The notes: a model not told the origin generated them from the letters alone. Positions 16,954 to 30,207 are shown, numbered from the stretch's first letter. The stretch is DNA of 49,903 nucleotides from an uncultured bacterium (GCA_964595945.1 CAZQSL010000009.1:1-49903); one strand, 5' to 3'. Program-made: numbers and translations.

Positions 16954-19900
16954 TCATTCAGACGATACAAGCCATGTCTGGAAATGGTCGGGGTGAGTGA
17001 AATCCATGAAGAGCGAGACTTGCCGTTCGAGTTCAGGGAATAGTGCCGTTGCCTGTTCGATGTCGTTTTCTCGGGCGGCGATTTCGACGGCTGAGGCCGA
17101 GGCCCGAAGCTGTCTTGCGGCAACAATGGCGGCGTCGCCGTTGATTTTGTGCGAAACGGCCCTGATCGTATCGAAGTCTTTGGCTTCGATTCCCTGTATG
17201 ATGAGTTCGACATAGCCATCGATGCGCGAGCGAACACGTTCGACAAACTCGGAAGCATATTCCATGTCGTCATCATAGATAGTCTTGAATTCAGCGCGGT
17301 CGATGACATCGGCTCCTGGGGCCTGGTTTTCGCAGGATGGATGTGTGTTCTTTGGCTTGTTATCGTGTAGATGAATGGCGGAATGCATATTGCCGGACTC
17401 CATTGGAGTCTGTTTGATATATCGTTTGATCATGTTGGTCAGACTGTCAGGCAGGACAGGTTTGATGAGGTACTCGTCCATGCCCGATGCGAGCCCGCGA
17501 GCGCGGTCATCGGAGAAAGCGTAAGCGGAAAGGCCCACGATAGGTGTATGGCGACCGGTGGTGGTTTCCCAGTTGCGAATGCTTTGAGTCGCTTCGAAAC
17601 CATCGACGACCGGCATCTGGCAATCCATAAGTATGAGATCGTAACTGCCAGACATTGCCTTTTCGATCGCGATTGCGCCATTGTGCGCAATATCGCAGTC
17701 GGTTATACCGATGCGGTCGAGCATTTCCGTGATGACCATTTGATTGGTTTGATTGTCCTCGACGATGAGCAGGCGAGGGGAGCCATTGGCGAGAGTGAAC
17801 GATTCGAAGGAATCATCTTTGGAAGAATCGTTCATTATGCTGGCGGCAATTTCGAGGTTGACGGTAAACGAGAAAACCGCTCCGCCGTAGTCATTGTTTC
17901 CGGCACTGATCGAGCCGCCCATAGCTTCGACGATTTCGCGTGAGATGGAGAGGCCGAGGCCAGTGCCGCCGTTACTGTCGTGTAGTTGTGCGAATGGCTG
18001 GAAGAGTCCCTCGATGAGGTTATCGGGTATCCCGATGCCGGTGTCACTGACAGTGAAAGTCACGGGCGCATGCGAGTCGCCCGTGTCCTCGATCGCACAT
18101 GTGACGCTGATCGTTCCCCGTGAGGTGAATTTGATGGAATTGCCTACGAAGTTGACGAGCACCTGTCTGAGGCGCAGTCTGTCGGATTTTACACAAATGT
18201 ATTTGGAACCATGGAAAGTGGTTTTCAATACGAGTCCCTTTTCCTTTGCCTTGTGAGCCAGGAGACTGTCGATGTCAGTGAGGATTTCGTAGAGATTGAA
18301 AGTCTCGTTTGCGAGGGTGATGGCGCCGGCTTCGATGCGTGAAAAATCGAGGATGTCGGTAATGAGGCTCATCAGATGATCGGAGGCGGAAACGATGCTG
18401 TCAGTATACGATGCTGCTTTTTGTGGCAGTCCGAGGTCATTGAGCAGACGTCCGAATCCAACTATGGCGTTAAGCGGGGTGCGAAGCTCGTGGCTGATTT
18501 TTGACAGAAATACACTTTTGGCCCTGTTTGCGGATTCGGCTTTTTCCTTTTGGGTGATCAGTTCCGATTCGAGTTTCTTGAGACGGGTGATGTCGATTTG
18601 TGTGCCAGCCATACGGATTGGTTTGCCGTCGGGGTCGCGTTCGATGATTTTCCCACGGTTGAGCACCCATGAATATGATCCGTCGCAACTTTTCAGACGA
18701 TATTCTATTTCATACTTGCCGCTGACGCCTGTTATATAGTGTCTGAGTGTTTCAGCGACGTGCAGTTCGTCATCCGGATGGAGGAGTTCCTTCCAGACTG
18801 TGAGGGCAGAAATGCAGGGGTATGGCTCATAGCCGAGCATTGTCGCCCAACGGTCGTTGAGAGTTATTTCATCGGCGGGGATATTCCAGTCCCATATGCC
18901 GATGTCAGCGCCGAAGATCGCCATTTCAAGCCTTTCGCGGCTCTCCTGAAGCTGTTTTTCTGCAAGTTTTCTCTGTGTGATGTCTTCTGCGATGCCGGCA
19001 GTTCTGAGATTTTCGCCTTCCGTGCCAGCGACGACCCATGACTTGGTGCGTACCCATTTGATGGCTCCGCTTGGTGTGAAGATGCGGAACTCCTGATCGA
19101 AGACACCATTGTTTCTGAAGTCGTTATAATAAATCGTTTTCATCTTTTCGCGATCTTCTTCGACAATATAGTTGCCAAAAAGGGCCGGATTGTCATATAG
19201 TTCGTCGCGGGGGCGTTCCCATATCTGTTCATAGATTGGGCTGATATAGAGGACTTTATCGTTTGATCGAAGCCAGAAAATCTCGTTGACATTTTCTGCG
19301 ATCTGGCGGAATCTGTTTTCGCTTTCGCGAAAAGCGTCTTCCGCGAGTTTTCTGTCGTTGATATTTCTTTTGACCCCCTGAAATCCGATGTGTTTTCCGT
19401 TGGCGTCGAAAATAGGTTTTGTGATCACCTCCACCCAGCATAGGGAGCCATCCTTGCATGCGTGCTGGATCGTGAATTCACCGATTTGGCATTCCTCATA
19501 AACATCGATCGAGGCGAGCCTTGATTGTACTTCTTCGACTGCTTCCGGCGTGATGAATGCAAACAGGTTTTTCCCTATGAGATCATCGACTGTATATCCT
19601 GTCATCGCCTCTTCGGATTTGTTGACATAAGTAAAGTTGAGATCTCTGTCCATTTGCCAGACGACATCGATGATGTTTTCCGTGATGAAGCGGTATTTCG
19701 ATTCGCTTTCGAGTAATTGTTTCTCAGCGATTTTTCGCGAAGTGATATCTCTGATAATCGAGAGTGCTCCTATGTATTTTCCATCGCTGTCGAGGAGGGG
19801 AGTGAGATTGATTTCAGTCGGAAAAACAGTACCGTCCGCCTTGATGTGATCGATTTCCCTTACGACAGATACGGCATGCTCCCTTGCGGTCTGGTAGATT

Positions 19901-20835
19901 TCCGCTATTGCCGCCACACCTTCGGCAGTGACGAATTGTGAATAGTGAAGGCGTGTGACGTCAGTGCCCGGAGGGATGCCGCAGATTTTGTAAGCGACTG
20001 GCGAAGCGAACCTGATGAGGCCGTCCGGAGCTATCAGCACTATGGCATCGGGGGCGGCGTTGATGAGTGTCTGCGAGAGGATTTCAGCGTCTTTGCGTGC
20101 CGCATCAGCGTCGATAATGTCAGATATGTCCTGGATCGCGACAATAATCCCCCTGTTGACTTCGCGGCCCAATAGACATCCGGACATGAGGGCGGTGAAA
20201 ATCCTGCCATCCTTTGCCATAAATTCGATCTGTTTTTCTGAAATCACACCGGTTGTCTTCAATTCGTCGAGAAAAATAATGCGATTCTTTATGTCGAGAT
20301 ACATTTCCTGCGCTTTCGCCCTGGTAAGGTCCTCGGGGAGTTTCAGCAGGAGTCTGGCTTTTTTATTGGCAAATAAAATATGGCCGTCGAAATCCGTAAT
20401 TAAAATGGATACCGGGGCGAATTCCGCTATGATTTTGAATTTATCCCGGGAGACATCCTTGAAGGCACTGGTGTAGTGCGCTTCGTAAGACCTGTCTCGC
20501 ATTGTCACGGTGCACAGTCCGTCATCGGAAGGGATTGCGGTGCATTCGATCACGATCTGTTCGGCGAAAATGGTCTTTTCGATAATATCGCTCTGAGGGG
20601 TATTGGTCGAAAAAGCCGCATTTATCAGTTCCTCGACATTATCCACAATCGAGTCATGGAGCACGGTGTTGAGAGGCTTGTTCAGGCTGTCCGGGGGGAT
20701 TTGGAAGATGAAGCCATCTCTGGGGTTGTGACAAAACAGCAGTATACTCCCGGAGTCGACAATCAGCACCATATCCCTGATACCGTTCATCAGGGATGTC
20801 ATGATGGATTTTCCGTAATCTGTAATTGGACCCAT
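16954..20835 (-). CDS. Hybrid sensor histidine kinase with multiple PAS/PAC domains, HisKA, HATPase_c, receiver and C-terminal HPt domains
   Basis: At least five PAS-like repeats. H-box SHELRTPLN. HATPase G-boxes (DTGIGI, GGTGLGL). REC with LLIVEDN...D. HPt helix-bundle tail. Confidence 0.85.
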   Translation of the reverse strand: MGPITDYGKSIMTSLMNGIRDMVLIVDSGSILLFCHNPRDGFIFQIPPDSLNKPLNTVLHDSIVDNVEELINAAFSTNTPQSDIIEKTIFAEQIVIECTAIPSDDGLCTVTMRDRSYEAHYTSAFKDVSRDKFKIIAEFAPVSILITDFDGHILFANKKARLLLKLPEDLTRAKAQEMYLDIKNRIIFLDELKTTGVISEKQIEFMAKDGRIFTALMSGCLLGREVNRGIIVAIQDISDIIDADAARKDAEILSQTLINAAPDAIVLIAPDGLIRFASPVAYKICGIPPGTDVTRLHYSQFVTAEGVAAIAEIYQTAREHAVSVVREIDHIKADGTVFPTEINLTPLLDSDGKYIGALSIIRDITSRKIAEKQLLESESKYRFITENIIDVVWQMDRDLNFTYVNKSEEAMTGYTVDDLIGKNLFAFITPEAVEEVQSRLASIDVYEECQIGEFTIQHACKDGSLCWVEVITKPIFDANGKHIGFQGVKRNINDRKLAEDAFRESENRFRQIAENVNEIFWLRSNDKVLYISPIYEQIWERPRDELYDNPALFGNYIVEEDREKMKTIYYNDFRNNGVFDQEFRIFTPSGAIKWVRTKSWVVAGTEGENLRTAGIAEDITQRKLAEKQLQESRERLEMAIFGADIGIWDWNIPADEITLNDRWATMLGYEPYPCISALTVWKELLHPDDELHVAETLRHYITGVSGKYEIEYRLKSCDGSYSWVLNRGKIIERDPDGKPIRMAGTQIDITRLKKLESELITQKEKAESANRAKSVFLSKISHELRTPLNAIVGFGRLLNDLGLPQKAASYTDSIVSASDHLMSLITDILDFSRIEAGAITLANETFNLYEILTDIDSLLAHKAKEKGLVLKTTFHGSKYICVKSDRLRLRQVLVNFVGNSIKFTSRGTISVTCAIEDTGDSHAPVTFTVSDTGIGIPDNLIEGLFQPFAQLHDSNGGTGLGLSISREIVEAMGGSISAGNNDYGGAVFSFTVNLEIAASIMNDSSKDDSFESFTLANGSPRLLIVEDNQTNQMVITEMLDRIGITDCDIAHNGAIAIEKAMSGSYDLILMDCQMPVVDGFEATQSIRNWETTTGRHTPIVGLSAYAFSDDRARGLASGMDEYLIKPVLPDSLTNMIKRYIKQTPMESGNMHSAIHLHDNKPKNTHPSCENQAPGADVIDRAEFKTIYDDDMEYASEFVERVRSRIDGYVELIIQGIEAKDFDTIRAVSHKINGDAAIVAARQLRASASAVEIAARENDIEQATALFPELERQVSLFMDFTHPDHFQTWLVSSE

Positions 20836-21031: not shown

Positions 21032-21319
21032 ATGGTACTCGGACGCGTCATAGGCACAGTAGTTGCAACACAAAAGAGTGATTCGCTAACGGGCAGAAAG
21101 CTGATGATGGTGCGCACACTCGATGTCGATCTCAAGCCGACGGAGGAGTATTTCGTTGCTGTGGATGCCGTGGGCTGCGGCAATGATGAAGTTGTGCTCT
21201 GCTCGAAGGGAAGCTCGGCGCGCCAGACTCCCCAGACAAAGAATACTCCCTCGGACATGGTTATTCTCGGCATCGTCGATTACGTTGATATCGATGGGCA
21301 GCAGATTTTCAAAAAGTGA
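21032..21319 (+). CDS. eutN: BMC vertex (pentamer) protein, EutN/CcmL/PduN family
   Basis: MVLGRVIGTVVATQK N-terminus and family length. GGGAG RBS. Confidence 0.9.
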   Translation: MVLGRVIGTVVATQKSDSLTGRKLMMVRTLDVDLKPTEEYFVAVDAVGCGNDEVVLCSKGSSARQTPQTKNTPSDMVILGIVDYVDIDGQQIFKK

Positions 21320-21422
21320 GTGCTGCCGCACAGTTTTCCATTCATGGTATGGCGGGATGGTGTTTTTTCAGTGTACATAATTATGGAATTAAAAAACATA
21401 TAAGGTTTATATGGAGGGTAAA

Positions 21423-21725
21423 ATGGAAAGCCGAATAGCACTTGGACTCATCGAAACCCGCGGACTCGTCGCCGCTATCGAAGCTGCTGACGCAATGGTC
21501 AAGGCAGCCAATGTCACTCTCGTCGGGAAAGAATACATCGGCGGAGGCTATGTCACCATCCTCATCAGAGGCGATGTAGGCGCTGTCAAGGCAGCCACGG
21601 ACGCAGGGGCTGCGGCAGTCGAAAAAATCGGTGAACTCGTCTCCGTACACGTCATTCCCAGACCGCACACCGATGTCGAACTTATCATACCCACCAAAGG
21701 CGTCGCTCCGAAAGCTACTAAATAA
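21423..21725 (+). CDS. eutM: BMC-H hexameric shell protein (EutM/PduA type)
   Basis: [27 protein letters not shown] canonical BMC domain. The upstream in-frame ATG GAGGG at 21411 more likely acts as the RBS. Confidence 0.9.
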
Positions 21726-21772
21726 GACTCCGGCGTTTCGGCTGACAATAGCGTTTCGCAATCATTCTTCGC

Positions 21773-21812
21773 GACGCACCGCGCCGTCTGCACACCGGCG
21801 GCGCGGTGCGTC
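21773..21812 (+). promoter_or_regulatory. Perfect 14-bp GC-rich inverted repeat (GACGCACCGCGCCG / CGGCGCGGTGCGTC, 12-nt loop) between the shell gene and eutB
   Basis: Seen directly. No downstream U-tract, so an intra-operon mRNA processing/stability or attenuator element is more likely than a terminator. Confidence 0.45.
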
Positions 21813-21826
21813 ATACGGGAGTTCTG

Positions 21827-23200
21827 ATGAAGCTTTCCACCACGATCAGAGGCCATTCTTATTCTTTCACCTCAGTTAAGGATGTCCTCGCAAAAGCTAA
21901 TGAGGAAAAATCCGGCGATACCCTCGCGAAGGTCGGCGCATTGTCCGATCTGGAGCGCATCGCCGCCAAACACGTACTTAGCGAACTCACTCTCGAAGAC
22001 CTTCGCAATAATCCCGTCGTACCCTATGAGGAAGACGAAGTGACGCGCGTCATCGACGACCAGGTCAACGAGACTATCTATGCTGACATCAAAAACTGGT
22101 CAGTCGGCGAGCTGCGCGAGTATATCCTCAAACCCACGACCACTAATCACCACATCCGCCGCATTTCCAACGGCCTGACATCCGAAATGGTTGCCGGGTG
22201 CGCGAAGCTTATGGGCGCTATGGACCTGATACTCGGCGCACAAAAGATCGAAGTGGTCGTTCACGCAAACAACACGATAGGACTTCCCGGCACACTTGGT
22301 TCGCGCCTCCAGCCCAATCATCCCACCGATGACATTGACGGCATACTTGCTTCGGCAAAGGAGGGGCTGGCCTACGGCTGCGGCGATGCGGTCATTGGCG
22401 TAAACCCTTGCATCGATTCACCCAAGAAGGTCACCGAAATCCTCAAGGCGCTCGAAGAAGTCCGCCTGAAGTGGGACATACCGACGCAGTTGTGCGTACT
22501 CGCTCACGTCACCACACAAATGGAAGCCATCAAACTCGGCGCGCCCACCGGCCTCACATTCCAGTCGCTCGCCGGCAGCGAAGCCGCCTGCAAGGCGTTC
22601 GGCATAAATGTCGCGATGCTCGACGAGGCATACGAACTTTCTAAAAAATACAACAATGCCGCCGGTCCCAATGTCATGTACTTCGAGACAGGGCAGGGGT
22701 CCGAACTATCCTCTAACGGACATCACGGCGCCGACCAGACAACACTCGAAGCCCGCTGCTACGGCCTCGCGAAACGCTATAGTCCTTTCATGGTCAATTC
22801 CGTCGTAGGATTCATCGGCCCAGAATATCTCTTCAATGGACGGCAGGTGATACGCGCCGGACTCGAAGATCATTTCATGGGCAAGCTCACCGGCATTTCG
22901 ATGGGCCTCGACTCCTGCTACACCAATCACATGGACACCGATCAATCCGACATAGAAAACCTCGCCGTGCTGCTGACCATGGCTGGCATCAATTTCTTCA
23001 TGTGCGTGCCGATGGGCGATGACATCATGCTCAACTACCAGCTCACATCGTTCCATGACATCGCCGCGCTACGTGAAATCTGTGGCAAACGTCCCGCGCC
23101 GGAATTCGAACAGTGGCTCGAAAAAATTGGTCTCATGGAAAACGGCCGCCTCACAAAGCTCGCGGGCGACGCATCTTTTTTTGACGGGGAGGCCCGATGA
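21827..23200 (+). CDS. eutB: Ethanolamine ammonia-lyase large subunit
   Basis: Full-length EutB similarity (MKLSTTIRG...). GGGAG RBS. The ORF-track GTG at 21806 is an upstream extension. Confidence 0.92.
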   Translation: MKLSTTIRGHSYSFTSVKDVLAKANEEKSGDTLAKVGALSDLERIAAKHVLSELTLEDLRNNPVVPYEEDEVTRVIDDQVNETIYADIKNWSVGELREYILKPTTTNHHIRRISNGLTSEMVAGCAKLMGAMDLILGAQKIEVVVHANNTIGLPGTLGSRLQPNHPTDDIDGILASAKEGLAYGCGDAVIGVNPCIDSPKKVTEILKALEEVRLKWDIPTQLCVLAHVTTQMEAIKLGAPTGLTFQSLAGSEAACKAFGINVAMLDEAYELSKKYNNAAGPNVMYFETGQGSELSSNGHHGADQTTLEARCYGLAKRYSPFMVNSVVGFIGPEYLFNGRQVIRAGLEDHFMGKLTGISMGLDSCYTNHMDTDQSDIENLAVLLTMAGINFFMCVPMGDDIMLNYQLTSFHDIAALREICGKRPAPEFEQWLEKIGLMENGRLTKLAGDASFFDGEAR

Positions 23201-24048
23201 GCCAGTCGGACGATCTCAGGAAACTCATAGCGGAAGTTGTCCGCGACGTGCTCGAAGAAACAGGGGCAACAGCTCAGGCCGAACCTGCCACAACATACGG
23301 CGCTGACGGTGACGATCTGCGGAACCGTGTGCTCATGCCATGTGAAAAGCAGCGCGCGGCTCTTGAAAAAATGCGCCAGTCAACCCCCGCCCGTATCGGC
23401 GTCTGGCGCGCGGGAGCACGCTATAAAACCGAATCCTACCTCAAGGCGCGAGCCGATCATGCCGTCGCACGTGATGCTGTCCTCATATCGCTCGATAAGG
23501 CGAAAATCGAACAGCTCGGCATCCTGTATGTCGATTCGGCCGCCGCTAACAAAACGGAATTTCTCATCAATCCCTCGCTTGGCCGCCGACTGTCCGATGT
23601 GTCCGCCGAATCCGTAAAGGCGAATTGCCCGTCGGAAACTGACGTTCAGATCGTCATCTGCGATGGCCTTTCATCGGCTGCCATCGAACTCAACATTGCT
23701 TCGTTCCTTCCGGCACTTATGAATAACCTTCAGGGCAAGGGCCTCAAACTCGGCAAACCAATCTATGTGAATAACGGACGCGTTGCCGTGCAGGATCAGA
23801 TCGGCGATATCCTTCGCCCACGTATCGCACTCAGCATCGTCGGCGAACGCCCCGGACTCGTGACTGCCGAATCGATGGGCTGTTACATTACTTACAATCC
23901 ATCATCCGAACGCGTCGAAGCCGAGCGCACCATGATTTCCAATATCCACAAAGGTGGACTGCATCCGCAGAAAGCAGCTGTGGAAATTGCAGAAAAGACA
24001 CGCAAAATTTTCGATCAGAAAGCCTCAGGAATGGGCTTCAAGGAGTAA
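23197..24048 (+). CDS. eutC: Ethanolamine ammonia-lyase small subunit with N-terminal amphipathic encapsulation-peptide-like helix
   Basis: ATGA overlap with eutB. VAVQDQIGDILRPRIALSIVGERPGL core. N-terminal DDLRKLIAEVVRDVLEE. Confidence 0.9.
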   Translation: MSQSDDLRKLIAEVVRDVLEETGATAQAEPATTYGADGDDLRNRVLMPCEKQRAALEKMRQSTPARIGVWRAGARYKTESYLKARADHAVARDAVLISLDKAKIEQLGILYVDSAAANKTEFLINPSLGRRLSDVSAESVKANCPSETDVQIVICDGLSSAAIELNIASFLPALMNNLQGKGLKLGKPIYVNNGRVAVQDQIGDILRPRIALSIVGERPGLVTAESMGCYITYNPSSERVEAERTMISNIHKGGLHPQKAAVEIAEKTRKIFDQKASGMGFKE

Positions 24049-24056
24049 TCACCAAG

Positions 24057-24710
24057 ATGCCTCTCGAACCAGTAAAACCAAAAGTCCTTGCCGCACGGAT
24101 TATTCCGCGCGTCAACGATTTCTATCATAAGCAACTTGATCTTCTGCCCGAAGAAGCGTGCATCGGCATGATTACGGCCACGTCCGACGATGCAACATAC
24201 GTATCGCTCGACCACGCGACTAAAGCCGCACAGGTGCGGGTCGTTTATGCCGAATCATTCTACGCTGGCGCGGGAGCGGCGTCCGGCCCACTGAGCGGCG
24301 AAGTCATCGGCATCATTTCAGGCACTGATCCGTCCGAGGTGAAAAGTGGCCTCGACGCGGCCATACAGTACCTTGAAGAAAGCGCGTGGTTCTACACCGG
24401 CGACGACGATGGACACCTCGTATTCTTTCCGCATGTCATTTCACGCGCTGGCGCATATCTGTCCGATCTCGCGCAGGTGCCTTTCGGCAGTCCTCTTTCA
24501 TATCTCATCGCGCCCCCTATCGAAGCCATGTACGCAATGGACCGTTCGCTCAAGGAAGCGGATGTGCAGATGCAGGTGTTCTGGGGTCCGCCGTCGCACA
24601 CCAACTTTGCTGGATGCCTGCTGACAGGTTCGCAAAGTGCGTGTCAGGAATCGGCAAAAGTGTTTTCAGATGCAATCATTGAAGTGGCAGCAAACCCGAT
24701 GCGATTCTGA
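24057..24710 (+). CDS. eutL: BMC-T tandem-domain shell protein EutL
   Basis: Length and sequence are typical of EutL. AGGAG RBS. Confidence 0.85.
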   Translation: MPLEPVKPKVLAARIIPRVNDFYHKQLDLLPEEACIGMITATSDDATYVSLDHATKAAQVRVVYAESFYAGAGAASGPLSGEVIGIISGTDPSEVKSGLDAAIQYLEESAWFYTGDDDGHLVFFPHVISRAGAYLSDLAQVPFGSPLSYLIAPPIEAMYAMDRSLKEADVQMQVFWGPPSHTNFAGCLLTGSQSACQESAKVFSDAIIEVAANPMRF

Positions 24711-24786
24711 TCTGTCGCAGACAAATGTATTTTTGGCCGGATTACCGAATCCCGGCGAAACAAAATAACGGTCAAGAGTGATCACA

Positions 24787-26229
24787 ATGGACAAAGACCT
24801 CGCAGGAATACAGGAAGCACGCGACAAGGTGGCGGCCGCGGTTGCCGCGCAAAAACTACTCGCCGAATTTTCCCAGGAGAAGATCGACCGAATTGTCGCC
24901 CGCATGTGTCAGGCAGGAGCACAGGCAGCCGAAAAGCTCGCGCGTATGGCTGTCGAAGAATCCGGCATGGGCAAAGTTGACGACAAAACCGCGAAAAACG
25001 AACTCGCCACCAGCGGGCTGTATGAATATATTAAGGATATGAAAACCGCAGGCATCGTCAGTGAAGACAAGACGCGAAAAATGTGGGAAGTGGCCGTACC
25101 GGTCGGCGTAGTCGCGGCGATCACGCCCACCACCAATCCAACGTCTACAACGATGCACAATGCGATAGTGGCGATGAAGGCCCGTTGCGCCTCGGTCATC
25201 AGCCCACATCCGCGCTCGAAGAACTGTTCTGCCGAAGCCATCGGCATACTGATGGCGGCGGCGCATTCAGCCGGCGCACCCGAAGGCTCGCTTAATTGTC
25301 TTACATCAGGCACGATGGGTGGCACGACTGAAATAATGAAGAACAGCGGCACGTCGGTCATCGTCGCCACCGGTGGTTCCGACATGGTTCGCGCGGCATA
25401 TTCATGCGGAAAACCGGCCTATGGCGTTGGCCCCGGCAATGTCCCCGCATTCATAGAACGAACCGCCGACATCGAAAAAGCGGTCCGCGATGTCCTGATT
25501 TCAAAATCATTCGATTATGGTGTGATATGCGCGTCCGAACAGGCCATTGTCACTGAAAGGCCAATTCGCGACAAGGTTATTGCGTCGCTTAAACGCAATG
25601 GAGCTTATGTGATGAACACCGATGAAATTGCTAAAATCAATAAAATCATACAGACTCCGGCAGGTGGCCTCAACGCTAAAATTGTCGGGCAGAGCGCCGA
25701 AAAGCTGGCTCAGATGGCAGGATTCAGCGTGCCGAAAAACACGCCCGCACTCGTCGGTGAAATCGACGGCGTTGGGAAAGCATATCCACTTTCCCGCGAA
25801 AAACTCGCCCCGATCCTCGCGCTCTATGTAGAAGACGGATGGGAAAGCGCGTGCGCGCGCTGCATGGAAATGCTCGAATATGGTGGTATTGGTCACACAC
25901 TCGGGCTCCATACGACGAACATTGACCTTGTCAAGGAATTCGCTCTCAAAAAACCTGTCGCACGTCTCATCGTAAATTCGCCGACAACACATGGCGCGGT
26001 TGGTCTTTCTACCGGACTTGCCCCGTCGTTTACACTCGGGTGCGGCGCGGTCGGCGGCACTATTACGACCGACAACATCACGCCCATGCACCTGATAAAT
26101 CTAAAACGTGTAGCGTTCGAACTGAAATCCTTCAACAAGCCCTCCGGCCCGGTCACTACTGATGATGGCGACCTCTCGGGCACAATCCGCAAAGTTGTTT
26201 CACGTCTCATGAAAGAGCAGGCAAAATGA
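24787..26229 (+). CDS. eutE: CoA-acylating acetaldehyde dehydrogenase EutE
   Basis: ALDH fold with catalytic Cys in GVICASEQ. The start could instead be the GTG at 24778. The C-terminal tail [29 protein letters not shown] resembles a linker plus encapsulation helix. Confidence 0.85.
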
Positions 26230-26990
26230 AGAGAGAAGTCCTGACTGAAATAAAACTTCGCGCCCTGAAAAAACAGGGCATTAATCAGGTGGCAATCACC
26301 GAAGGTACGCTTGTCACGCCATCAGCGCGCGACTTTGCCCGGCAGGCTGGCATAACTGTCACGGTCAACGAAGCATCTGTCGCCACGTCCGCGCCTTCGA
26401 AGACAGCCGGGAAATACACTCCGCCCGTAGCGCCAAAAGGCTCCTTCACTAACAGCTATACTGGCGAATCGCTCGATGCGAAACCCGAACATTTTACACA
26501 TCTGCAAGGCAATGTGCTTGTGCAGAAGAATCACCCGCGCATTGCATTCCGTGGCCAGATCGACAAAATTCAGGCCTACGTCGTCGAAGCTCAGATACTT
26601 GCGAAACAGGAGAAAATACCCGCTCTCGAATCAGACCTCGACGATGTGCTCAAGCTCCTGCGCGAGATTATGCGCGCCGAAGTACGCGACGTACCGCTTG
26701 CTGATGTTCCGGTTTTCGGTCTTACTGTCGAGCAACTCCGGGAGGCGTCACACAATCCAGCTAAATTTTTCAATACCGGCCATACGCTTGCCGATAAAAA
26801 TTCGAGCATGGCGGTCGCGCGTATCAACATCATGCGGACCATCGTCCGCGAGGCCGAAATCACCGCGCTTGACGCATTCGCGGGCGGTGTCACTCTCAAG
26901 CCCGAACGCAGTGATATTCTAACTGCCATGAACCGCCTTTCGAGCGCGTTTTACATCTTGATGTGCAAATATTCTGGAGGGTCGGAATGA
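26226..26990 (+). CDS. eutT: EutT-type ATP:cob(I)alamin adenosyltransferase
   Basis: ATGA overlap with eutE. N-terminal LTPSARDF motif and C-terminal ILTAMNRLSSAFYILM motif align to Salmonella EutT. Confidence 0.8.
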   Translation: MKREVLTEIKLRALKKQGINQVAITEGTLVTPSARDFARQAGITVTVNEASVATSAPSKTAGKYTPPVAPKGSFTNSYTGESLDAKPEHFTHLQGNVLVQKNHPRIAFRGQIDKIQAYVVEAQILAKQEKIPALESDLDDVLKLLREIMRAEVRDVPLADVPVFGLTVEQLREASHNPAKFFNTGHTLADKNSSMAVARINIMRTIVREAEITALDAFAGGVTLKPERSDILTAMNRLSSAFYILMCKYSGGSE

Positions 26991-27655
26991 GCGCACGCGA
27001 AGACCAGATCGCCGCGCGAATACTCGCGGAACTAAATAAGGATAAAACGCAGGCGGCGCCAGGCGCGCGATGCAAACTTGACCGCAAATCCATACCAGTC
27101 GGCATTTCCAACCGTCACCTGCACCTCTGCCGGGCCGATCTTGACGCGCTATTCGGTTCGGGGTATGAACTTTCGAAAAAGAATGACCTGTCGCAGAAAG
27201 GGGAATTCGCTTCGAACGAACTGGTCACGCTCACCGGCCCACGGGGCAGCATAGAAAAGGTTCGAGTGCTCGGCCCGCTTCGCCCGGAAACACAGATTGA
27301 AATTTCTCCGACTGATGCCCGCCGCCTCGGAGTGATGCCCCCAGTGCGTCTTTCCGGAGATACCAAAGGCACGCCTGGCCTCACTATCAAGGGGCCGGCT
27401 GGCGAAGTGAAAATGAATTCCGGGCTGATCATCGCCAAGCGTCATCTGCACGCCAATCCCGAACAGGCCAAAGTGCTCGGACTCCGCGATGGCGATGTCA
27501 TCAGCATAAGGGCGCTGACCGAACGGCCCACAATATTCGAAGGCGTGTCAGTCAGAGTGCGCCCGTCATTTGAAATCGAACTCCACATCGATGTGGACGA
27601 AGCCAACGCCGCGATGATAAATAACGGCGACTCAGTCGAAATTGTGAGGAAATAA
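26987..27655 (+). CDS. pduL: PduL-type phosphotransacylase (phosphate acetyl/propanoyl-transferase) with N-terminal encapsulation peptide
   Basis: ATGA overlap with eutT. GGAGG RBS. Duplicated PduL half-domains. Confidence 0.85.
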   Translation: MSAREDQIAARILAELNKDKTQAAPGARCKLDRKSIPVGISNRHLHLCRADLDALFGSGYELSKKNDLSQKGEFASNELVTLTGPRGSIEKVRVLGPLRPETQIEISPTDARRLGVMPPVRLSGDTKGTPGLTIKGPAGEVKMNSGLIIAKRHLHANPEQAKVLGLRDGDVISIRALTERPTIFEGVSVRVRPSFEIELHIDVDEANAAMINNGDSVEIVRK

Positions 27656-27957
27656 TGGCTAAATACAGATTCATAAAAACTCCGACCCGCAACACCATAG
27701 AAATCATCAAGCGCCGGCTCGTAAGCCGTGACCGTGCCGACGAACTCGACTGGACGGCAGTCGGCCTTGTGCAATGCAGTGTGGCCGACATCATCTACGC
27801 ATCCGATGTTGCCGAAAAAACTTCCGATATAATCGCGCTCGAACTCTCCGGCACATGCCCGCAGCACATCACCACTCTTGCGTTGTTCGGCGAAACGGCG
27901 GCGGTCGACGCGGCGCTCGAATCAGTCAAACGCGCTCTCGCCGAGACCGAATGCTGA
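27655..27957 (+). CDS. Circularly permuted BMC shell protein (EutS/PduU type)
   Basis: About 100 aa with a permuted BMC fold. TAATG overlap with pduL. Confidence 0.8.
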   Translation: MAKYRFIKTPTRNTIEIIKRRLVSRDRADELDWTAVGLVQCSVADIIYASDVAEKTSDIIALELSGTCPQHITTLALFGETAAVDAALESVKRALAETEC

Positions 27958-27995
27958 CACGGTGAAACATATATAAAGGATTAAGGTGGGAATCA

Positions 27996-29321
27996 TTGAA
28001 CCGCGATGAACTCGTAAAAATTGTCAGGGACGCTGGAATTGTTGGCTGCGGCGGCGCGGGGTTCCCAACGCACGTCAAGGTCAATGCCAGCGCCGAAGTG
28101 GTGATCGCTAACGGCGCATCGTGCGAACCGCTCCTGCATTCGGACATCCATCTACTCGAACACGAGGCCGGAGGCGTAGTGCGCGGACTGCGTTATGTGA
28201 TGGATGCCGTCGGCGCGAAACGCGGTGTCATTGCCATCAAAAAGAAACATCCAGAAGCCATTTCCGCGGTGGAGCGAGTACTCACAACCGGGATTGAAAT
28301 TTTTACGCTCGAAGATTTTTATCCCGCTGGCGATGAACAGGTTCTCGTATATGAAATCATGGGCAAAATTGTGCCTGAAGGGGGCATTCCGCTCAATGTC
28401 GGCGCGGTTGTGGACAACATCGAAACGCTGTTCAACATCACTCGCGCAGTCGATGGATTCCCCGTCACGCACAGGTGGCTGACGGTAGCGGGAGCAGTGA
28501 GGAAACCCCGCGTGATGCTCGCTCCCGTTGGTGCGCCACTTAGTGAAATACTCGCGCTCGCGGGCGGTGCCACTGTCACGAGTGCCGGCTATATCGAGGG
28601 CGGTCCGATGATGGGCAAAATCATTGACATCGAAACTGCCGTCGTCAAAAAGACCACCACCGGACTGCTTGTTTTTCCGGCTGATCATGTGATTTTTACA
28701 CGCCGCGAAATGTCAATCGAAGCGATCATCAGGCGCGGCATGTCTGCCTGCACGCAATGTACTTACTGTACGGACATGTGCCCGCGATACCTGATCGGCC
28801 ATCGACTGCGCCCCAATCTCACGATGCGCTCCGTCGCGTTCAGCCATTTCGATCCCGAAGGCCCGGCTTCCGATGCCCTTATTTGCTGTGAGTGTGGAGT
28901 CTGCGAAACGACTGCCTGCAATCTCGGCCTGTCGCCGATGCGCGTGAACATGATGCTGAAGAAAAGATATGCGGAAGAGGGCGTAAAATTCAAACGGACG
29001 GAAACGGCGCTCGAAGTCCATCCGTTCAGGTATGCACGGCTCACGCCGATCAAAAATATCATGCAGCGCGGCGACATGCTTGAATGGTACGGGCAGAAAT
29101 TATCAGATGTTACTGAGCTTTTCACGCAACGAGTGGAAGTGCCTCTTAGCCAGCACATAGGCGCTCCTTGTGAAGCTATCGTAGCTCCTGGAGCAAAGGT
29201 GAAGCTGTTCGAAATGATAGGCAAACCATCCGATGGAAAACTCGGCGCGCCGGTGCATTCACCGATAGACGGAACTGTAAAAGATATTACTGACGGAAGA
29301 ATAACAATTGAGGCGAAATGA
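27996..29321 (+). CDS. pduS: PduS-like cobalamin reductase (RnfC/NqrF-like flavin-NAD domain plus two 4Fe-4S clusters)
   Basis: N-terminal GIVGCGGAGFPTHVK motif. Cys clusters CTQCTYCTDMCP and CCECGVCETTAC. TTG start after AAGGTGGG RBS. Confidence 0.8.
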   Translation: MNRDELVKIVRDAGIVGCGGAGFPTHVKVNASAEVVIANGASCEPLLHSDIHLLEHEAGGVVRGLRYVMDAVGAKRGVIAIKKKHPEAISAVERVLTTGIEIFTLEDFYPAGDEQVLVYEIMGKIVPEGGIPLNVGAVVDNIETLFNITRAVDGFPVTHRWLTVAGAVRKPRVMLAPVGAPLSEILALAGGATVTSAGYIEGGPMMGKIIDIETAVVKKTTTGLLVFPADHVIFTRREMSIEAIIRRGMSACTQCTYCTDMCPRYLIGHRLRPNLTMRSVAFSHFDPEGPASDALICCECGVCETTACNLGLSPMRVNMMLKKRYAEEGVKFKRTETALEVHPFRYARLTPIKNIMQRGDMLEWYGQKLSDVTELFTQRVEVPLSQHIGAPCEAIVAPGAKVKLFEMIGKPSDGKLGAPVHSPIDGTVKDITDGRITIEAK

Positions 29322-29875
29322 TGCAGCGAACAATCGGAATGGTTGAATTTCTCAGCGTCGCTAAGGGCATCGAAGGTATCGACGTAATGCTCAAGGCGGC
29401 GGATGTGCAGCTACTTGCGGCAAAACCACTCTGTCCCGGCAAATACATGGTGATGGTAGGCGGCGACGCGGCAGAAGTGGACAGTTCCGTGCAGGCAGGC
29501 ATCAGACATGGCTCGCACTTCATCGTCGGTTACACCTGCATCAACAATGTCCATGAAATGGTGTTCCCTGCGATATGGGGCACTTCAAAATACGACTTGC
29601 GCGCGCTCGGTGTCGTAGAGACTTACAACGTCGTAACAGCAGTTCGCGCAGCCGACATCGCGGCGAAATCAGCCGACATCGAATTGATCGAGCTCCGGCT
29701 TTCGGTTGGCCTCGGCGGCAAGGCATTCATCACACTAACCGGATATGTAGACGCCGTACAGACAGCAGTGGATGCCGGGGCGGCGCTCGCCAACGCTACG
29801 GGCGAACTCGTCAGCAGCGTGGTTATCGCAGCTCCTCATCCTGATTTACACAGGGCGATCAGTACGCCCGTCTGA
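29318..29875 (+). CDS. pduT: BMC-T tandem shell protein, PduT-like
   Basis: 185 aa, two BMC domains. ATGA overlap with pduS. Confidence 0.8.
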   Translation: MMQRTIGMVEFLSVAKGIEGIDVMLKAADVQLLAAKPLCPGKYMVMVGGDAAEVDSSVQAGIRHGSHFIVGYTCINNVHEMVFPAIWGTSKYDLRALGVVETYNVVTAVRAADIAAKSADIELIELRLSVGLGGKAFITLTGYVDAVQTAVDAGAALANATGELVSSVVIAAPHPDLHRAISTPV

Positions 29876-30207
29876 TGAAAAATGACGACTCACACAGGTG
29901 CGATATGGGAAAACTTATTACGAAAAAAGAGATTGTAGAAGCAAACGCGAAACACTTTTCGGAACTCGAAGTGCCATGCGACGCCATCATCACCCCACTT
30001 GCGCAGGATGCCGCGAAACAATATGGCATCGAGATCGTAAAGTCGGGCGGCCCAAGCCGCGCGTGTGACGTACGCTCGCTTCAGGGCGGAGCGGTCGATG
30101 AGGCGGCCATCGAGAAAATCGCGCGCATGGCAATAAGCGACCTCGGTGATAAAGCCGACCTCGAAACGGTCATCCGCATTGTCGAAAAAGTCGTCAGGAA
30201 AATGTAG
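29875..30207 (+). CDS. Small BMC-operon protein homologous to the N-terminal domain of EutT (ITPLAQD motif) with an amphipathic C-terminal helix
   Basis: ATGA overlap with pduT; the start could instead be the ATG at 29905 after an AGGTG. Motif EVPCDAIITPLAQDAAKQYGIEIV parallels EutT QVAITEGTLVTPSARDFARQAGITVTV. The C-terminal DLETVIRIVEKVVRKM resembles the EutE tail [14 protein letters not shown]. Confidence 0.6.
   Translation: MKNDDSHRCDMGKLITKKEIVEANAKHFSELEVPCDAIITPLAQDAAKQYGIEIVKSGGPSRACDVRSLQGGAVDEAAIEKIARMAISDLGDKADLETVIRIVEKVVRKM

Follow-up and report, generated by a model that had tools for sequence, protein, structure and literature searches.

In ethanolamine utilization (EUT) microcompartments, the terminus at which the aldehyde dehydrogenase (AldDH) carries its encapsulation peptide (EP) depends on the type of locus, being the N-terminus in EUT1 and the C-terminus in EUT2A-D, EUT3 and EUT-other (Aussignargues 2015, PMC4594438). 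The type I AldDH, described as "dominated by EUT2" and corresponding to IPR013357, has the C-terminal EP as a defining trait, and the N-terminal and C-terminal placements have been read as independent acquisitions (Sutter 2021, PMC8217296). In Salmonella, deletion of residues 2-19 of EutC abolished the encapsulation of EutBC (PMC12487888), and the PduL of bacterial microcompartments (BMCs), which is used by EUT2, has an N-terminal EP (Erbilgin 2016, PMC4784909). The present analysis concerns a stretch of 49,903 nucleotides from an uncultured bacterium (GCA_964595945.1, CAZQSL010000009.1:1-49903), referred to at its full length as the window, which very probably harbours an EUT2-type BMC operon with canonical EPs on three cargo enzymes, N-terminal on EutC and PduL, and C-terminal on the AldDH. 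This arrangement is the standard EUT2 configuration, and the features by which EUT2 is recognised are present, namely EutB together with EutC, a PduL-type phosphotransacylase (PTAC) in place of EutD, a probable type I AldDH, and shell genes of the BMC-H, BMC-T and BMC-P kinds.

Probable encapsulation peptides on EutC, PduL and AldDH

The definition of a BMC encapsulation peptide was that of Kinney 2012 and Aussignargues 2015. Amphipathicity was expressed as the Eisenberg moment over 11 residues and ranked against all 2828 such segments of the 12 locus proteins, and AlphaFold2 (AF2) was run with homologue alignments on the single chains of AldDH and PduL, confidence being given as the predicted local distance difference test (pLDDT). 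The comparison set comprised the 120 best AldDH protein homologues and 80 genomic loci encoding AldDH homologues (L001-L080), the AldDH tails being parsed by a sequence anchor and manual inspection. The candidate peptides and their linkers are the following:

26116-26172, plus strand: AldDH C-terminal linker, residues 444-462, unstructured in AF2 (pLDDT <50 at 454-461) and unconserved in the homologue alignment
26173-26223, plus strand: AldDH C-terminal candidate EP, residues 463-479, from the AF2 helix, the moment and homologous tails
23209-23259, plus strand: EutC candidate EP, residues 5-21, DDLRKLIAEVVRDVLEE, from the moment, the E. coli alignment and the homologue motif
23260-23325, plus strand: EutC linker, residues ~22-43 (TGATAQAEPATTYGADGDDLRN...), ahead of the Pfam and NCBIfam domain matches
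26993-27049, plus strand: PduL candidate EP, residues 3-21, AREDQIAARILAELNKDKT, from the AF2 helix and the homologue register
27050-27091, plus strand: PduL linker, residues 22-35, QAAPGARCKLDRKS, without secondary structure in AF2 (pLDDT ~51)

The three peptides quoted in the first-pass annotation are all present in the sequence, and their proposed role as EPs is well supported by terminal position, amphipathic helix, poorly conserved linker and BMC locus; the interval under which they had been filed, 23197-26229, nevertheless leaves out PduL (26987-27655).

The AldDH starts at the ATG at 24787, or possibly at a GTG at 24778, and runs to 26229. Its best NCBIfam match by far is TIGR02518 (609.2 bits, E 5.7e-183), the type II EutE model PRK15398 (Salmonella-type) reaching only 248 bits, and wherever the 120 top homologues are named, all of them are acetaldehyde dehydrogenases (acetylating). 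By its sequence, the enzyme is probably a type I (TIGR02518/IPR013357, AdhE-like) BMC AldDH. It had been said to lack an obvious N-terminal peptide, and this is borne out: the TIGR02518 model starts at residue 5, residue 13 pairs with residue 38 of E. coli EutE (BLASTP), and the helix of residues 3-25 lies inside the fold (pLDDT 87-98). At the other end, the AF2 model (pLDDT 90) places the last core strand at residues 437-443, followed by the linker 444-462 and a terminal helix 463-479 (pLDDT 69-79), the hydrophobic stripe of which is formed by L463, I467, V470, V471, L474 and M475; the moment of residues 466-476, 0.78, ranks in the top 0.35% of the locus. Alignments to the nearest solved structures, 5J78 and 3K9D, then AdhE N-terminal domains, end at residue ~445-451.

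The tails of the 120 homologues fall into two classes, one with a linker and an amphipathic helix, the other with a long linker and a domain of ~45 residues. Examples of the helix class, ISEADIGRIVAEVLHRL and ITEEQIEAIIKEFTKK, have the hydrophobic register i, i+3, i+4, i+7, i+8, as in the window. Among the 80 loci, the linker-plus-helix tail occurs in every locus encoding both EutB and EutC (19/19), with EP-like N-termini on EutC and PduL in those same loci, and it is missing from the AldDH homologues of the loci without shell genes (3/3; L009, L017 and L050), from AdhE and from the chains in the PDB. The tail is hence not kept in non-BMC AldDHs, which favours the EP reading, and judged from these comparisons the three predicted terminal helices are conserved specifically in BMC contexts. 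The earlier view that EUT-type loci do not usually have the EP at the C-terminus of their AldDH is contradicted by PMC4594438 and PMC8217296, by the probable TIGR02518 type of the enzyme and by the 19 loci; it arose because the yardstick was the EUT1 operon of Salmonella/E. coli, itself the exception. The C-terminal tag is already known, and is ordinary for all EUT types but enterobacterial EUT1. The placement of the peptides thus re-discovers a published rule and in itself matters little.

With the type I BMC AldDHs bearing a C-terminal EP (EUT2, GRM1/2) the enzyme shares the AdhE-like acylating core without an N-terminal extension, the disordered C-terminal linker with an amphipathic helix of ~17 residues, and the gene setting beside PduL and shell genes. 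It differs from them in its short linker (19 aa), its unusually basic helix (+3), its TIGR02518 score under the cut-off and an identity of no more than 56% to any database sequence. The EP in residues 1-20 of Salmonella/E. coli EutE (EUT1, type II; E. coli MNQQDIEQVVKAVLLKM) is a peptide of this kind, presumably with an identical task, but it sits on the opposite terminus of an enzyme from a different AldDH clade (29% identity).

EutC opens with MSQSDDLRKLIAEVVRDVLEE (longer head MSQSDDLRKLIAEVVRDVLEETGATAQAEPATTYGADGDD), in which L7, L10, I11, V14, V15, V18 and L19 form the hydrophobic stripe. The moment of residues 6-16, 0.75, is the maximum within EutC and ranks in the top 0.6% of the locus. 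The segment RKLIAEVVRDVLEETG matches the E. coli EutC peptide QKQIEEIVRSVMASMG (BLASTP), the full-length identity being 40%, and the EutC proteins of the related EutB/EutC loci open with like motifs, e.g. MVSEMELKKIIEQVISEM. From the moment and the alignment to the E. coli EP, we infer that the head of EutC is probably a helix. The EutC domain sets in at residue 55 according to Pfam (match 55-282) or at residue 44 according to NCBIfam, and the linker ahead of it differs in length and sequence among homologues. The likeness to the EP in residues 1-19 of Salmonella/E. coli EutC (EUT1) extends to the N-terminal position, the motif (RKLIAEVVRDVLEE versus QKQIEEIVRSVMAS) and the linker preceding the EutC domain; the window peptide is more acidic, and its linker is shorter (~22 aa versus ~40 aa).

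For PduL, the mechanical list of open reading frames (ORFs) has a GTG start at 26963, which was set aside for the ATG at 26987. The latter is almost certainly the real start, because it is preceded by a GGAGGG Shine-Dalgarno sequence and forms an ATGA overlap with the eutT stop codon. The N-terminus then reads MSAREDQIAARILAELNKDK (longer head MSAREDQIAARILAELNKDKTQAAPGARCKLDRKS), with a stripe of I8, A9, I12, L13 and L16 in an Ala-rich peptide. The AF2 model (pLDDT 93.5) has a helix at residues 3-21 (pLDDT 92/84), the linker 22-35 and the core from residue 36. AF2 thus predicts the helix-linker-core architecture in two cases, at the tail of AldDH and at the head of PduL, so that a non-helical structure, named beforehand as an outcome that would speak against the peptides, is not what the models give. 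The PduL peptide is in register with the MANQNYEAVLKLLLEAVQ class of long PduL homologues, and PduL proteins of the related EutB/EutC loci open with motifs such as MNESDIRDIVREVLKNG. Sorted by length, the homologues form a short class (189-196 aa) that has no extension, 2-8 residues preceding the core, and a long class (209-228 aa) with an EP-like extension of 23-42 residues, in agreement with Erbilgin 2016. As in the PduL EP described there, an N-terminal helix of ~20 residues and a linker precede the double beta-barrel PTAC fold, and the extension is found on long homologues only. The window peptide differs in being Ala-rich and weakly amphipathic, and its context would be acetyl-CoA, not propionyl-CoA.

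Taken together, a poorly conserved linker, variable in length and sequence among homologues, lies between the peptide and the catalytic domain in EutC, AldDH and PduL. In the AldDH loci the extension distinguishes BMC from non-BMC homologues, for PduL there are length classes with and without it, and for EutC the distinction is taken from the literature (PMC4594438). The three peptides have in common the pattern hydrophobic-hydrophobic-x-x-hydrophobic-hydrophobic-x-x-hydrophobic, and differ in net charge (EutC -3, PduL 0, AldDH +3). A pairing of EPs with one another by complementary charge is conceivable from these sequences. Each tag is probably an amphipathic helix of 17-19 residues on a disordered linker of 14-22 residues. 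By analogy with tested systems (Pdu, Eut and the beta-carboxysome), the hydrophobic face of the helix would attach the enzyme to shell proteins, to an adaptor or to both, and the peptides may also promote coalescence of the cargo. EutB would enter as the partner of EutC in a common complex, and the result would be the joint enclosure of the acetaldehyde-producing and the acetaldehyde-consuming enzymes.

Several observations weigh against this assignment. The TIGR02518 score of the AldDH falls just below the curated cut-off (609.2 versus 620.1 bits), no known protein exceeds 56% identity to the enzyme, and the helix is short and basic (+3) in comparison with the tails typical of homologues, most of which are acidic or neutral. 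The amphipathicity expected of all three peptides is in the top 1% for EutC and AldDH and weaker for PduL, with moments of 0.52-0.61 (top 3-7%; 0.61, top 3%, at residues 9-19) that are no better than those of shuffles of the same peptide (p = 0.32). Because the moment is only weak, the case for PduL rests on the AF2 model and the conservation of the register. Furthermore, a search of the 49.9-kb contig that covered all ORFs of 180 aa or more revealed no EutA domain, EutA being listed for all EUT types (Axen 2014). Since EutA is absent from the operon, the locus is not a textbook EUT2; EutA may be encoded elsewhere in the genome.

The practical value of the assignment lies in annotation, the PduL start codon being fixed, and the three candidate peptides might serve to direct cargo into a divergent shell system.

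Alternative readings of the terminal helices

A refinement that is compatible with the encapsulation reading comes from Salmonella EutQ, in which shell binding falls to helices H1/H2, and binding of EutC 1-20 and EutE 1-20 to H3/H4 (residues 63-99) (PMC12487888). The last gene of the window operon encodes a protein of 110 residues that matches the NCBIfam EutQ model at positions 1-99 only. It has no Pfam cupin domain (PF06249) and ends at residue 110. Because the cupin domain is lacking, the protein is not an EutQ orthologue, and its homology to EutQ can cover the N-terminal part at most. E. coli EutQ and EutT share an N-terminal module of ~45 residues, KKLITANDIREAH...IITPEAREVADLLGFTI, here termed DOM45, and the 110-residue protein consists of DOM45 (residues 11-57), a linker and a helix-turn-helix (residues 74-110, AAIEKIARMAISDLGDKADLETVIRIVEKVVRKM). 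In the EUT2 operon, the three peptides might accordingly bind the helix hairpin of this protein, whose DOM45 would bind the shell in the manner of Salmonella EutQ 1-99; we give this rather less than an even chance.

The first half of the comparison with EutQ is the stronger one. A profile built from 12 such small proteins, all taken from related loci, was matched by hhalign to E. coli EutQ 2-51 at a probability of 92.4% (E 5.3e-7), which makes the DOM45 part homologous to that region, and small proteins of equal architecture occur in 11 related loci. The helix-turn-helix AAIEKIARMAISDLGDKADLETVIRIVEKVV is collinear with H3/H4 of EutQ, SQRIRETIIAQLPEGQFTESLVAQLMEKVM, but the match is weak (hhalign P = 0.028, probability 1.7%), so that homology in the second half is no more than suggestive. 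The order of elements is the same as in the Salmonella EutQ 1-99 adaptor, with an H1/H2 module of ~45 residues, a flexible linker and two amphipathic helices, and the difference lies in the missing cupin/acetate-kinase domain. With a moment of 0.97, no other segment of the locus is as strongly amphipathic as the last helix, VIRIVEKVVRK. This helix was considered as a fourth EP, and the idea was rejected in favour of an H4-like helix by collinearity with EutQ 1-99.

The distribution of DOM45 bears on the same question. In iterated searches with a hidden Markov model (HMM), DOM45 was found in 68/82 sequences (the 80 related loci, the window and E. coli), its carriers being EutT, EutQ-like and TIGR02536-like proteins, small proteins of 100-135 aa, the C-terminus of Acidobacterial AldDHs, and the N-terminus of one PduL. 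The type I AldDHs of Acidobacteria and like lineages have, in place of a C-terminal EP, a long linker rich in Pro, Ala and Ser that leads to DOM45. When the count is confined to loci that contain shell genes and are flanked by 5 kb or more on either side, a separate DOM45 protein accompanies 28/28 loci with an EP-type AldDH and 0/13 loci with a DOM45-type AldDH (Fisher p = 6e-11), a test that is uncorrected for phylogeny, the 13 DOM45-type loci being mostly Acidobacteria. This either/or distribution is suggestive of a portable shell-docking module, and is to be taken as a lead and not as a result. Against the need for any adaptor stands the direct EP-shell binding documented for Pdu (cited in PMC4594438).

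In this context one should consider that the cupin EutQs of Gram-positive bacteria lack H1-H3, and that the mechanism there was concluded to differ (Sci Adv 2025, PMC12487888). Because the EutQ adaptor unites shell-binding H1/H2 with EP-binding H3/H4, and the Gram-positive EutQs are without H1-H3, the 110-residue protein could be the missing, separately encoded adaptor. That a separate small protein, here this ORF, supplies the role of EutQ 1-99 in EUT2-type and related type I AldDH microcompartments, with the peptides docking to its hairpin and DOM45 being a portable module swapped with EPs, is put forward tentatively from the sequence comparisons. If true, the EutQ mechanism would extend to lineages that the 2025 study thought to differ, and the 110-residue protein would suggest a general adaptor logic for cargo loading beyond the enterobacterial EUT1 model.

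The family of the 110-residue protein is recognisable by profiles only. A word-indexed search with the protein returned only the query itself, and an exhaustive phmmer search returned the query, the repeat artefact P0247 and one relative of 88 aa (P0248). The latter has the reverse order of elements, DOM45 standing last, behind an initial EP-like helix (YEALVEMITERVYQAL) and a linker. No Pfam model for DOM45 was found, the sole match being non-significant (E3_binding, E 0.023). Within the window, the module also stands at the N-terminus of EutT:

26229-26369, plus strand: DOM45 on EutT, residues 2-48 (BLASTP to E. coli EutQ 2-45, 7e-5; DOM45 HMM, E 4e-17)

The EutT N-terminus also matches the C-terminal end of TIGR02536. 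DOM45 on EutT was rejected as a novelty, E. coli EutT having the same N-terminal module. In the PduL homologue of one Parageobacillus locus (L015, 7390-8166), and likewise in the PduL homologue P0129, DOM45 replaces the usual EP at the N-terminus. A further combination is met in TIGR02536-like "eut hypothetical" proteins, which have an N-terminal EP-like helix (e.g. MENLDHLVDLITDRLMEKL) and a C-terminal DOM45:

L016, 13630-14277: TIGR02536-like EP and DOM45 protein
L008, 13933-14670: the same
L001, 14174-14977: the same
L038, 12529-13212: the same
L041, 12638-13234: the same

Their architecture suggests a second kind of shell-cargo linker; a gene of this kind is not present in the window.

Rather than serving encapsulation, the C-terminal helix of the AldDH could be an element intrinsic to the enzyme, with a part in oligomerisation or regulation. 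Such a structural role is conceivable insofar as EPs alter oligomeric state and solubility, as reported for PduL (PMC4784909), and the pLDDT of the AldDH helix is moderate (69-79). Between the tail and the fold, however, lies a linker that is disordered and not conserved, the tail is absent in the three shell-less loci, in AdhE and in the solved structures, and other BMC lineages have DOM45 at the same position of the AldDH instead, all of which makes an intrinsic element very unlikely. That the termini only happen to look amphipathic, as might be argued from the PduL moment lying within that of its shuffles, is scarcely credible and effectively refuted by the conservation data, because the pattern recurs, with register and terminus unchanged, in dozens of BMC-locus homologues that are only 45-55% identical, and AF2 predicts the helices of AldDH and PduL.

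The operon, its neighbours and its lineage

The EUT2-type BMC operon, its genes assigned by Pfam and NCBIfam matches, extends over 12 genes:

21032-30207, plus strand: EUT2-type BMC operon, 12 genes
21032-21319, plus strand: BMC-P shell protein EutN (Pfam EutN_CcmL, 3.2e-31)
21411-21725, plus strand: BMC-H shell protein, EutM/PduA-like (Pfam BMC, 1.5e-30)
21827-23200, plus strand: eutB, ethanolamine ammonia-lyase large subunit (Pfam EutB, 5.8e-209), with an ATGA overlap with eutC
23197-24048, plus strand: eutC, ethanolamine ammonia-lyase small subunit, 283 aa (Pfam EutC, 1.5e-79; NCBIfam EutC, 1.4e-83)
24057-24710, plus strand: eutL-like BMC-T shell protein (Pfam BMC, 4.4e-14)
24787-26229, plus strand: acetylating acetaldehyde dehydrogenase, assigned to the type I BMC AldDHs, 480 aa from the ATG (TIGR02518, EutH_ACDH)
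26226-26990, plus strand: EutT-type cobalamin adenosyltransferase (NCBIfam EutT, 2.3e-32; Pfam Cob_adeno_trans)
26987-27655, plus strand: pduL-type phosphotransacylase, 222 aa from the ATG at 26987 (Pfam PTAC, 2.4e-72)
27655-27957, plus strand: EutS/PduU-like permuted BMC-H shell protein (Pfam BMC, 1.5e-6)
27996-29321, plus strand: PduS/RnfC-like Fe-S flavoprotein (Pfam Complex1_51K, SLBB, Fer4_17, RnfC_N)
29318-29875, plus strand: PduT-like BMC-T shell protein (two Pfam BMC matches, 3.7e-40; NCBIfam eut_PduT)
29875-30207, plus strand: 110-aa EutQ-N-like protein, last gene of the operon (NCBIfam EutQ model positions 1-99, E 2.9e-5)

The operon is compact and its translation in large part coupled, further ATGA overlaps joining the AldDH gene to eutT, eutT to pduL, and pduS to pduT. 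The same gene set is found in seven of the related loci (L001, L003, L008, L010, L012, L014 and L025), and the presence of PduS in the operon recalls the EUT2B/D subtypes (Axen 2014). No EutH permease, EutG alcohol dehydrogenase, EutJ/EutP or cupin EutQ was found anywhere in the 49.9 kb, and scans of the window with Rfam and for tRNAs returned nothing, including no cobalamin riboswitch.

Directly upstream of the operon and divergent from it lies a gene for a hybrid sensor kinase of 1293 aa (16954-20835, minus strand) with multiple PAS domains, HisKA, HATPase, REC and Hpt. No EutV-type ANTAR regulator was identified, and the kinase may be the regulator of the eut operon, replacing EutV/EutW; a two-component regulator is present in 87% of EUT2 loci (Axen 2014; Sutter 2021).

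As to the lineage, the seven window proteins that were looked up are all singletons at 90% identity, the closest of 5.8 billion sequences share no more than 56-58% identity with AldDH and PduL, and the best match of the AldDH among GTDB species representatives, which do not include this genome, is likewise 56%. Judged by these comparisons, the contig comes from an unsampled lineage. It also carries T2SSE/T2SSF genes of the type II secretion/type IV pilus type and a sigma-54 activator, which suggest a Gram-negative host.

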